Shown one piece after another: positions 27,301-30,300 of a stretch of 64,000 nucleotides of DNA (positions within the stretch are counted from its first letter, which is position 1; every line of letters starts with the position of its first letter). This stretch comes from Eledone cirrhosa (Eukaryota), in assembly GCA_964016885.1 (NCBI GenBank), contig OZ024766.1, forward strand, positions 5,952,001 to 6,016,000, written 5' to 3'. Both the position numbers and the translations under genes were made by a program. Under the pieces are notes generated by a model. That model was given only the letters and a program-made list of their open reading frames with translations. It was not told where the DNA came from and searched no databases.

Positions 27301-30300
27301 AGAGAGAGTGTATATAAATAATTGGTATATATATACATATATATATAGTGTGTTGACATTGTCCTGTATATATAGAGAGAGAGTGTATATAAATAATTGG
27401 TATATATATACATATATATATAGTGTGTTGACATTGTCCTGTATATATATAGAGAGAGTGTATATAAATAATTGGTATATATACACATATATATATAGTG
27501 TGTTGACATTGTCCTGTATATATATAGAGAGAGTGTATATAAATAATTGGTATATATATACATATATATATAGTGTGTTGACATTGTCCTGTATATATAT
27601 AGAGAGAGTGTATATAAATAATTGGTATATATATATATATATATATATATATATAGTGTGTTGACATTGTCCTGTATATATATAGAGAGAGTGTATATAA
27701 ATAATTGGTATATATATACATATATATATAGTGTGTTGACATTGTCCTGTATATATATAGAGAGAGTGTATATAAATAATTGGTATATATATATATATAT
27801 ATATATATATATAGTGTGTTGACATTGTCCTGTATATATAGAGAGAGAGTGTATATAAATAATTGGTATATATATACATATATATATAGTGTGTTGACAT
27901 TGTCCTGTATATATATAGAGAGAGTGTATATAAATAATTGGTATATATATACATATATATATAGTGTGTTGACATTGTCCTGTATATATAGAGAGAGTGT
28001 ATATAAATAATTGGTATATATATATATATATATATATATATATAGTGTGTTGACATTGTCCTGTATATATATAGAGAGAGTGTATATAAATAATTGGTAT
28101 ATATATATGTATAGTGTGTGTATATAAATATATAGTGTGTTGAAACAGAGAAGAGTGTATATAAATAATTAAATGGGTATATCGTGTATGTGTGTGTGTG
28201 TATATAAACACGATGATGATGATGATAGTATGGATGTGTGTGTGTATATTTGTGTGTGTGTGTGTATGTATGTATGTGTGTGTGTGTGTGTGTGTGTGTG
28301 TATGTATGTATGTATGTATGTATGTGTGTGTGTGTGTGTGTGTGTGTGTGTATGTATGTATGTATGTATGTATGCATGCATGCATGCAAACATTACAATG
28401 AAGAAATATATTAGTTTCATGCTTGATATAATAGGAAAAGAGTCTTAAAGTTTCGGGCACTAGTCCTTCATCAGAATATAGAATGAGAAATATATATATA
28501 TATATATATATATACATATACATACCTTTCCGTGTTCGTTGACTGCAGCAAGTGCAGCATCTCGCATGTTGGTCTGAACCTCGTGTGCGCGGTCACCCAG
28601 CGCCTTCGGTACGTAGAATGCGAAGAGGGTGGCTATGAGATGTTTGGGCAAGAGTGGCGCCATCTTGGTGAGACAGAGGGCGATGCCACTGCGTGACATC
28701 CAGTCGTCGGGGATCGGGTCCCCAATGACACGCCCAAAACTGTCGACCTCTGGTGGTGGTAGCTGAAGAGAAAGAAGGGGCAGTTGTGAGTGAGGTGAGA
28801 GACAGTGACAAAAACATACATATCCATATATACACATATATATATAGTGAGATAGATAGATAGGAATGAGTGAGATATCCATTGTATGTGAGTGTATATA
28901 TATATATACATACATGTATGTGAATATATGGTGGCTGCCAACTCGTTTTCGAGTACGGCCACTACTTTATATCCATGTAGGAGAACCCCTACCGATGCGC
29001 TGAACGAGTGTGACTTTTTAGTCCAGCCAGCGACTTGAAAACTCTGGTACAAACACTACACTTGTGACAATTATTGACACATAGTGCTGGGCCCATGGTA
29101 CAATGTGACGACAAGTGCAGAGAGATCTCCAGATATAAAGCAATGCCTGTGCCGTGAAGCTTTTATAGTGAGCAAAGGCACTGCACAAAGCCAGTCCCAC
29201 TCTCTTAACCAAGATGATATTTACCAAAAAGAAGAACAAGCCAATTCTCTAACCACTCAGCCACACGCCTTCACTATATATATAAGTATTAATAAAATAG
29301 ATGTTCTTTTGATCAATTACATTTTATTATATATATTTCGGAGGTACAACAGTACGTCCTCATCAGACAAAATATAATGATACATGACATACCCTGAGAT
29401 GTTAAATGGTTAAGATTTAATATATAAAAAATTTTCTGAAGTTATTAATATTAAAATATAAGTATTAATAAAATAGATGTTCTTTTGATCAATTACATTT
29501 TATTATATATATTTCGGAGGTACAACAGTACGTCCTCATCAGACAAAATATAATGATACATGACATACCCCTGAGATGTTTAACAACTTAATACTTATAT
29601 ATAAATATATATATTTACACACACAACAACAACAGTAACAACAACAGTAACTTACAAAAAGCTTCTCTGCATATTTCTCCAGCAGCAAATGCAACATCGG
29701 TGCAACCTGCTTCTTGTGAAACGCGAGCACGGCTGCGACGGTGCAGGCTGCTGCCTGGCGGACTGTCTCTTCCGGGTGGATCACATCCTCAATGAGGAAG
29801 GTCGCCATCTTGGAGGGGGGGTTCAGGATCTTTAGCTTCGTCTCCAGGCTGTGGAAGATAGACGGGGGTGATATTATATTATATATATAAATATATATAT
29901 ATGTGTGTGTATGTATGTATATGTGTATATATATATGTGTATGTGTATGTATGTATATATGTGTGTATATATATGTGTATATGTGTATGTATGTATATAT
30001 GTGTATATATATATATATATATATGTGTGTGTGTATGTATGTATATATATATATATCTGTATATATGTATATATATATACATAAATATATATTACATATA
30101 TATGTATATATACATATATATGTATATATACATATCATCATCATCATCATCACCGTTTTACGTCCGTTCTTCCACGCTAGCATGGGTTAGACGGGTTGTC
30201 CTGTTGTGGGCAGTGTCTGGTCGGCTGACCATGCCTTGCTCATACAGGAACTGATCTGGCTTGATTTCTACAGCTGGATGCCCTTCCTAACACCAACCTC

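Follow-up and report, generated by a model that had tools for sequence, protein, structure and literature searches.

Why two potentially self-cleaving RNA motifs should stand side by side in an intron of a housekeeping transcript, and whether they do anything for the gene that carries them, is the question raised by a short locus in the genome of Eledone cirrhosa. The locus lies within a window of 64,000 nt (contig OZ024766.1, positions 5,952,001 to 6,016,000; coordinates below count from the first letter of this window), in which a GCN1-like gene on the minus strand holds a tandem pair of hammerhead ribozyme motifs in one of its introns. With confidence a little better than even, we favour the account in which the pair is a young insertion of pseudo-long terminal repeat (pLTR) fragments from a Hydra-clade Penelope-like element (PLE), probably copied by Penelope enzymes from the RNA of a 176-nt tandem array, and is probably a passenger without a role in GCN1 control. 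That the hammerheads are of Penelope origin, by whatever route they arrived, we regard as close to certain.

Two hammerhead motifs in tandem

Two blocks of 115 nt on the minus strand, 29280-29394 and 29456-29570, are 100% identical and spaced 176 nt apart, copy 1 having one additional G immediately upstream of the block when compared with copy 2 (AGGGG versus AGGG). Each copy carries a CUGAUGA core, with C3 at 29542 in copy 1 and 29366 in copy 2, preceded by AUUAUAUUUUGU as the 5' strand of stem I and followed by stem II (GGACGUAC/GUACCUCC), in which seven of eight positions are paired and the fourth is C.C; after this come GAA, the palindromic helix III AUAUAUAU and A17, at 29504 and 29328 respectively. 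Hammerhead 1 (29492-29554) is thus made up of stem I (29554-29543 with 29503-29492), the core (29542-29536), stem II (29535-29516), GAA, helix III (29512-29505) and A17, and hammerhead 2 (29316-29378) has the same parts. Both show the CUGANGA and GAA boxes, the A15.1-U16.1 pair, a non-G at position 17 and the R10.1-Y11.1 pair of a minimal type I hammerhead. Cleavage is predicted at 29504|29503 and 29328|29327, which would release an RNA of 176 nt (29503-29328, 22% GC), the first cut falling 151 nt past the GT donor at 29655. The initial annotation, made from the letters of the window, had described such a pair with a 176-nt period on the GCN1 pre-mRNA strand, a complete minimal core with palindromic helix III in each copy, and cuts giving a 176-nt product about 150 nt from the donor, and on all of these points it was borne out. 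Its seven of eight pairs in stem II were likewise found, but the eight pairs it gave to stem I fell short of the 12 that can form.

The presence of two hammerhead motifs in tandem, sense to the GCN1-like pre-mRNA, is confirmed. The core is not a chance match, because the 35 nt of core plus stem II occur exactly 1,631 times in the 3.0-Gb genome that was searched and a reversed control does not occur at all. Three results weigh against the reality of the motif: Rfam, a check by hammerhead models of the kind proposed in the initial annotation, yielded nothing but AT-repeat microRNA noise, with no hammerhead family at thresholds of E 1 (5 kb) and E 10 (341 nt); the pair was absent among the matches listed by Tandem Repeats Finder (150 of 153); and hammerheads were missing from the fold of minimum energy computed for the 321-nt region.

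The stem covariation among genomic copies that had been proposed as a test of the ribozymes was seen in stem II, where pairs 1-3, 5 and 6 are paired in all of 11 related variants with two-sided changes (G-C/A-U, A-U/G-C/U-A, U-A/C-G), the variants having been hand-picked and filtered for pairing, which inflates the paired share. Copies within the family are too alike to covary, and variation in stem I is mostly one-sided across the same 11 variants. As a comparison of sequences, this covariation supports the hammerhead fold as a property of the transposon. The fourth stem II position is unpaired in every one of the 11 (C.C, once C.A; for example L018:1840-1908, L048:3020-3084 and L091:2307-2377) and may mark a tertiary contact or a protein site. 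In a number of sister families the pair at 10.1-11.1 is G.U.

The parent is a Penelope-like element of the Hydra clade

A genome search with the element, in which 40 of 828 candidates were scored, gave at least 70 matches on many contigs at 79-100% identity. Extension of these copies into their flanks reached first a common upstream region and then nuclease and reverse transcriptase (RT) coding sequence on the ribozyme strand, so that the Penelope RT and GIY-YIG neighbours suspected in the initial annotation were recovered as a Hydra-clade parent element. In 11 of 20 loci the same hammerhead precedes the start codon by about 215 nt, and in four (L058, L059, L061 and L062) it lies downstream of the RT-GIY-YIG coding sequence, at a distance of about 1.7 kb; the hammerhead is found in the pLTR on both sides of the parent open reading frame (ORF). 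RT, together with a C-terminal GIY-YIG nuclease, occupies one ORF, assembled from several broken copies: a 558-aa frame in L059 spans the RT into the nuclease, L058 provides the linker and nuclease, and L065 runs from the start to the linker. The protein has 30 homologs, mostly unnamed, at 31-42% identity and contains the motifs RWR (43), DKT (127), YRDD, CxCx5C (CNCRNKSNC), YIG, CxxC (CPLC) and CxH (CLH).

Hydra-clade PLEs are described by DKT (for DKG), RWK, a CxCx5C linker, CxxC and CxH motifs placed around the E and N of the nuclease, and no CCHH, and their length, generally below 3 kb, is given as a tendency and not as a strict criterion (Craig et al. 2021, PMC8557442). The parent resembles these elements, Hydra-1_Obim among them, in its single ORF with RT and C-terminal GIY-YIG, in DKT, CxCx5C and the nuclease CxxC and CxH, as well as in its (TA)n targets, a hammerhead near the 3' end, inverted 5'-truncated arms and a palindromic helix III. 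It differs from them in having RWR for RWK and a unit of about 4 kb, which exceeds the general length of the clade because of a 3' untranslated region (UTR) of 1.7 kb; its hammerhead is unlike the Hydra-1_oBim row, and its insertion ends lie about 110 nt apart, compared with a tail of 30-40 nt (PMC8557442). The window copy, unlike full Hydra-clade PLEs, has no coding part.

The motif set and a by-eye likeness to the Hydra alignment blocks place the parent, on its deduced sequence, among the Hydra-clade PLEs. Speaking against this assignment, no fully open RT-endonuclease frame was present among the copies read (L065 stops after the linker), and in five parent fragments Pfam recognised neither an RT nor a GIY-YIG family; the domain calls are made from motifs, homologs and Atlas neighbours that in part carry RVT_1. 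A literature search on PLEs and hammerheads, octopus and twin priming, which took in few subscription journals and neither Repbase nor Dfam, turned up no paper describing this family or the 176-nt unit. Other Penelope-like families, with Hydra-like nucleases and a different RT type, are found near the copies (L061:1108-1788, L060:3-539, L054:1-393 and L062:153-1462), as their common TA targets would lead one to expect.

Anatomy of the insertion

The copies of the family were compared in fetched loci chosen by likeness to the queries, and the shares given here apply to that set. Among 84 distinct copies, 39 stop between +36 and +65 past the cut site, 30 at about +160, 11 reach the ORF and four are 176-nt junction units; nearly all copy ends adjoin TA repeats. 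By eye, 36 of the first 100 cores listed belong to head-to-head pairs within 4 kb and none to same-strand pairs. Insertion into (TA)n and inverted 5'-truncated arms are thus shown by the family, with a tail of about 110 nt, and the window copy has both types of end.

Read along the minus strand, the window element begins after TA-rich target DNA (29600-29615, no strand assigned) with an inverted arm of 23 nt (29577-29599, plus strand) that corresponds to the second 3' end of the parent, approximately +138 to +160. This exact 23-mer was found in 23 fetched loci, overlapping loci being counted separately. Through a 4-nt overlap, AACA, the arm is joined to pLTR copy 1 (29457-29580), which is 5'-truncated 38 nt above the core, reaches +47 and continues into the spacer. 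The spacer consists of parent 5' UTR from +48 to +78 (29426-29456), present a single time, and of a filler, ATATA (29421-29425), that links it back to pLTR sequence. Copy 2 (29281-29420) then runs from the truncation point TTAAATC, which is present in 20 of the 84 copies, to the first 3' end of the parent at +47, followed by TA. Alignment has in this way shown the hammerheads, the spacer and the inverted arm to be parts of the parent pLTR and 5' UTR, and the outer ends to be the two standard ends of the parent in TA repeats. Adjoining the element is an unrelated repeat of very high copy number in the genome depth table (28926-29274, minus strand), which presumably has a SINE-like (short interspersed nuclear element) head.

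Arm and body belong to different subfamilies: the inverted-arm end goes with an A-type stem II in 11 of 11 copies, and the body of the window copy is C-type, like the 176-nt array. The insertion is a chimera on this account. Elsewhere in the family the arms of inverted pairs differ at subfamily-diagnostic sites in 4 of 16 cases (for example L020, L029, L071 and L103), so two templates do occur, a hint that a single integration may draw on two different RNAs.

Across the family (for example L059, L061 and L015) some 110 nt separate the two preferred ends of insertion, and in one subfamily both terminate in an identical 12-mer resembling the TA target. By analogy, two fixed ends fit the two RT start sites known for the anole Poseidon element PAc, which likewise has two fixed insertion ends downstream of its ribozyme and AT-rich targets (Frangieh et al. 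2024, PMC11167929). The present family is of another clade, and its ends lie about 110 nt apart within the 5' UTR before the start codon, both with a similar TTAATA(C/T)-TA-rich motif. The two sharp ends would extend the internal-priming model to the Hydra clade.

Predicted fold and cleavage

By fold energies, which leave out tertiary contacts, the dimer (a double hammerhead) exceeds the ensemble by 2.5, 3.3, 4.3 and 4.3 kcal/mol in four of five contexts and by 10.8 in the fifth. Two separate monomers cost 8.9-11.1 kcal/mol, the dimer being 5.7-8.6 kcal/mol better in four of the five contexts, and the predicted occupancy of the dimer fold is 0.1-2% at best. The initial description of the motifs as minimal type I hammerheads of Penelope type, dependent on a dimer fold, was right. 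With such elements they share the core, an eight-pair helix II, G10.1-C11.1, a small palindromic helix III, the predicted action as a dimer, and mass dispersal as single motifs and close inverted pairs; they differ in a 12-pair stem I, in lacking a bulge before 10.1 and in the unpaired C.C (or C.A) of stem II. Published activities are low: minimal PLE hammerheads cleave weakly even as dimers (PMC4209133), one of nine Xenopus dimers was cleaved (Li et al. 2026, bioRxiv 10.64898/2026.07.22.740005), and the anole PLE ribozyme required its protein (PMC11167929).

The predicted 176-nt circle folds at -17.1 kcal/mol, compared with -17.8 for its shuffles, 165 of 300 of which were as stable (z +0.19).

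The 176-nt unit at two loci

Searches for the 176-nt junction, one allowing up to 2 mismatches and another using a different pattern, placed it at no more than two loci: the window and an array of four consecutive units at C27:7.481 Mb. The two lie 1.5 Mb apart on one 22-Mb contig, and no host exons were recognised by eye in 20 kb near the array. A segmental duplication between the loci was rejected, the flanks being non-homologous and sharing only common repeats. Local doubling of a lone copy inside the intron was also rejected, because both halves of the spacer are single and neither can be derived from a copy that runs from AACATC to +47.

An error of assembly that duplicated one copy is an explanation to which we give almost no credence. 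It would account for the full identity of the blocks, and no public contig bridges the locus (contigs from four sequencing runs included none that spans it and no joint skipping the element). Yet the 53-nt spacer is single in the window and matches the junction at the independent array locus with one substitution, and copy 1 carries an extra G and an arm that copy 2 lacks. One of the four runs (X1, which may be DNA) yielded a 64-nt contig that is the inverted junction of another copy. Among the sequencing runs, none of RNA was listed for this stretch, a result that carries no weight as to expression.

Over 126 nt the body of the window copy is one change away from array units 2 and 3. Within the array, one unit has an extra stem II mismatch, the first unit and its junction carry three private changes, the last unit is a different variant, and units 1-3 differ from the last at a subfamily-diagnostic site. 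At helix III both window copies read A, and their spacer contains a T; neither base is present in any of the four array units (G at helix III in 4/4); the variant that combines this A with C has three matches in the genome. Pairs of this and sister cores on the same strand within 40-420 nt number 57 at 38 loci, with spacings of 57-417 nt, and in 15 such loci that were read some proved to be separate insertions into the TA tails of one another and some local duplications. Three were arrays of broken hammerheads with units of 65, 92 and 81 nt, so tandem growth needs no working ribozyme. Among the 38 loci, the 176-nt unit is the only small unit placed at two.

These observations bear on how the second unit reached the intron. 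One possibility, which we consider unlikely yet deserving of some weight, keeps the Penelope origin and the passenger status and has a break in an existing single-copy insertion, made up of the arm and one hammerhead, mended from the four-copy array, with the gain of one 176-nt unit. Such repair would suit the closeness of the only two loci with the junction, and an arm from another subfamily than the body is what would be expected if the ends predate the middle. DNA-level copying is moreover common here, as the local tandem arrays of the window and the broken-hammerhead arrays attest. Repair would, on the other hand, presuppose either that two neighbouring donor units both had the helix III A or that the two window copies were homogenised afterwards, and the array has G throughout.

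A second possibility is an active young retrozyme, in which the released 176-nt RNA is circularised and copied round more than once by the Penelope RT to give both the 1.7-unit insertion and the four-unit array. Told in full as a retrozyme at its birth, a tandem duplication of a Penelope end would have formed a dimer, whose 176-nt circle was copied 1.7 times into the GCN1 intron while ordinary Penelope RNA primed the other strand. We judge this improbable in the one form as in the other. It would explain in a single step, from one circular template, how a variant with three genome matches came to be in both window copies; the placement of this one small unit at two loci and the difference between the first three array units and the last speak for it as well, and the route has been proposed (PMC4209133). 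Against it stand the restriction to two loci, a circle no more stable than its shuffles, unlike the self-paired circles of PMC7229834, a dimer predicted to be so sparsely occupied, and an arm that cannot be derived from the circle.

The pair counts as a minimal non-LTR (long terminal repeat) retrozyme by the loose definition of Li et al., which asks for two or more short units in a row, each with a type I hammerhead in full; there are two here and four at C27:7.481 Mb. The retrozyme-like unit of the initial annotation holds to that extent, but not as regards a multi-copy family (two loci) or a self-paired circle. The pipeline of Li et al. starts from Tandem Repeats Finder, among whose listed matches the window pair was absent. 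Like metazoan non-LTR retrozymes (Cervera and De la Pena 2020, PMC7229834; Li et al. 2026), it is a short AT-rich non-coding tandem unit with a type I hammerhead in each repeat, its size falls within the reported range, and a PLE pLTR origin is what Li et al. propose. It departs from them in forming two loci and not a family, in its minimal and not canonical hammerhead, in a circle that is not self-paired and in its PLE ends, and it is known here from DNA alone; true retrozyme RNAs are abundant self-paired circles (PMC7229834).

The 1.5-Mb distance favours repair or local re-insertion, and the A common to both copies favours a single template such as a circle. On balance we incline to an RNA route rather than a DNA route for the insertion, with a circular template contributing a small part. 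Under the favoured account, insertion from array RNA, a 5'-truncated end fragment would first have doubled locally and grown into the array at the more diverged locus. A Penelope protein would have bound RNA of that array or of its allele and nicked the intronic TA stretch, whereupon one strand would have been primed at +47 and 1.7 units (300 nt) copied, and the other primed at the +160 site of ordinary family RNA, giving the 23-nt arm, before the products of both strands were joined at AACA. Once transcribed, the two motifs could exchange strands to form a double hammerhead, whose cuts at 29504 and 29328 would be slow, probably too slow to outpace splicing. Several points count against this account. 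Random re-insertion within 1.5 Mb has a chance of about 1 in 1,000, a distance more in keeping with copying at the DNA level; all array units lack the window A and T, so that the assembly does not contain the exact donor; and arms agree in 12 of 16 inverted pairs, so that two templates are a minority. In addition, the A of the window renders helix III perfectly palindromic, and the dimer costs 2 kcal/mol less than in the array, which makes some cleavage plausible.

The host gene and the question of GCN1 control

The element lies in an intron of 893 nt (28763-29655, minus strand), which it shares with the high-copy repeat. The upstream exon (29656-29848, 193 nt) was assigned from its translation and splice sites, with AG before it and the GT donor at 29655, and is in phase 0 with the next exon (28526-28762), which matches residues 1195-1269 of PDB chain 8i9x_LR (E 3.4e-05). 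Three exons are collinear with residues 1195-1269, 1762-1827 and 1921-1975 of this chain of 2,898 residues, and one has a Pfam HEAT_GCN1 match at E 6.6e-05, below the cut-off of the family; the host gene is called GCN1-like because of the ordered exon matches together with this sub-threshold hit. The chain is labelled L19, which we take to reflect a fused GCN1-L19 annotation.

The initial annotation went on to couple self-cleavage to the splicing of GCN1. As a co-opted control element, the pair would cut 151 nt past the donor in competition with splicing and tune GCN1 output; the sense orientation, intact cores, short intron and proximity to the donor, and the advantage of the dimer over two monomers in four of five contexts, could all be read in this way. 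We nevertheless think it very improbable. Over 126 nt no more than 0-2 changes separate the element from other copies of the family, and it is for this reason too young to show selection, its core is one of 1,631 exact occurrences, and hammerheads across the introns of the gene show no strand preference. According to earlier work cited in PMC2995048, and so at second hand, introns cut by slow hammerheads in vivo were still spliced, whereas a fast hepatitis delta virus (HDV) ribozyme blocked splicing. With the low activities published for such hammerheads, the coupling found no support, and in all probability the element has no selected role in GCN1.

Five further hammerheads of sister Penelope families were located in introns of the same gene, at 36155-36195 (+), 45902-45941 (+), 51856-51896 (-), 52050-52090 (+) and 56199-56238 (-); those at 51856 and 52050 form a head-to-head pair, and in that at 56199 the first stem II pair is broken. 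The next intron has a short CUGAUGA...GAAA motif with a small stem II and no clear stems I and III (28451-28474, minus strand). Motifs at 39005 and 45680, which have no hammerhead stems, were treated as chance.

Place among published elements

The pair is an ordinary case of a published pattern, in which PLEs leave thousands of minimal hammerheads in the genomes of animals and tandem end pieces resemble retrozymes. Its modest value is that of a clean and young test case, where parent, 176-nt array and daughter copy lend themselves to base-by-base comparison. An influence on GCN1 splicing, if real, would matter more, and nothing here points there. Were the retrozyme at birth true, parent, array and daughter would all stand in one genome, and a circle would be made whenever GCN1 is transcribed.

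Other observations

At C3:149,688,515-149,689,177 (L111) a nine-copy array with an 81-nt unit has intact cores of a sister subfamily, the 3' strand of stem I being a TA repeat, and by its sequence is a candidate for a smaller retrozyme-like element. L089, L094 and L104 (C1:63.698 Mb, C1:157.161 Mb and C2:345.521 Mb) hold arrays of truncated hammerheads at an inversion junction, in which the last copy alone is whole; their layout suggests repeated copying at the 5' junction.

The introns in the window are full of long, near-perfect tandem arrays, at 1953-4492, 5664-8390, 8813-11938, 19135-21575, 26299-28107, 48881-50721 and 58465-59004, with units of 49, 51, 37, 109, 75, 61 and 77 nt respectively, the 109-nt unit being a piece of the reverse-transcriptase gene of a long interspersed nuclear element (LINE). 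At 33867-34745 (minus strand) a GCN1-like exon region continues in one open frame into a low-complexity stretch, poly-A/G/N and E/K-rich, which may be a lineage-specific protein insertion.

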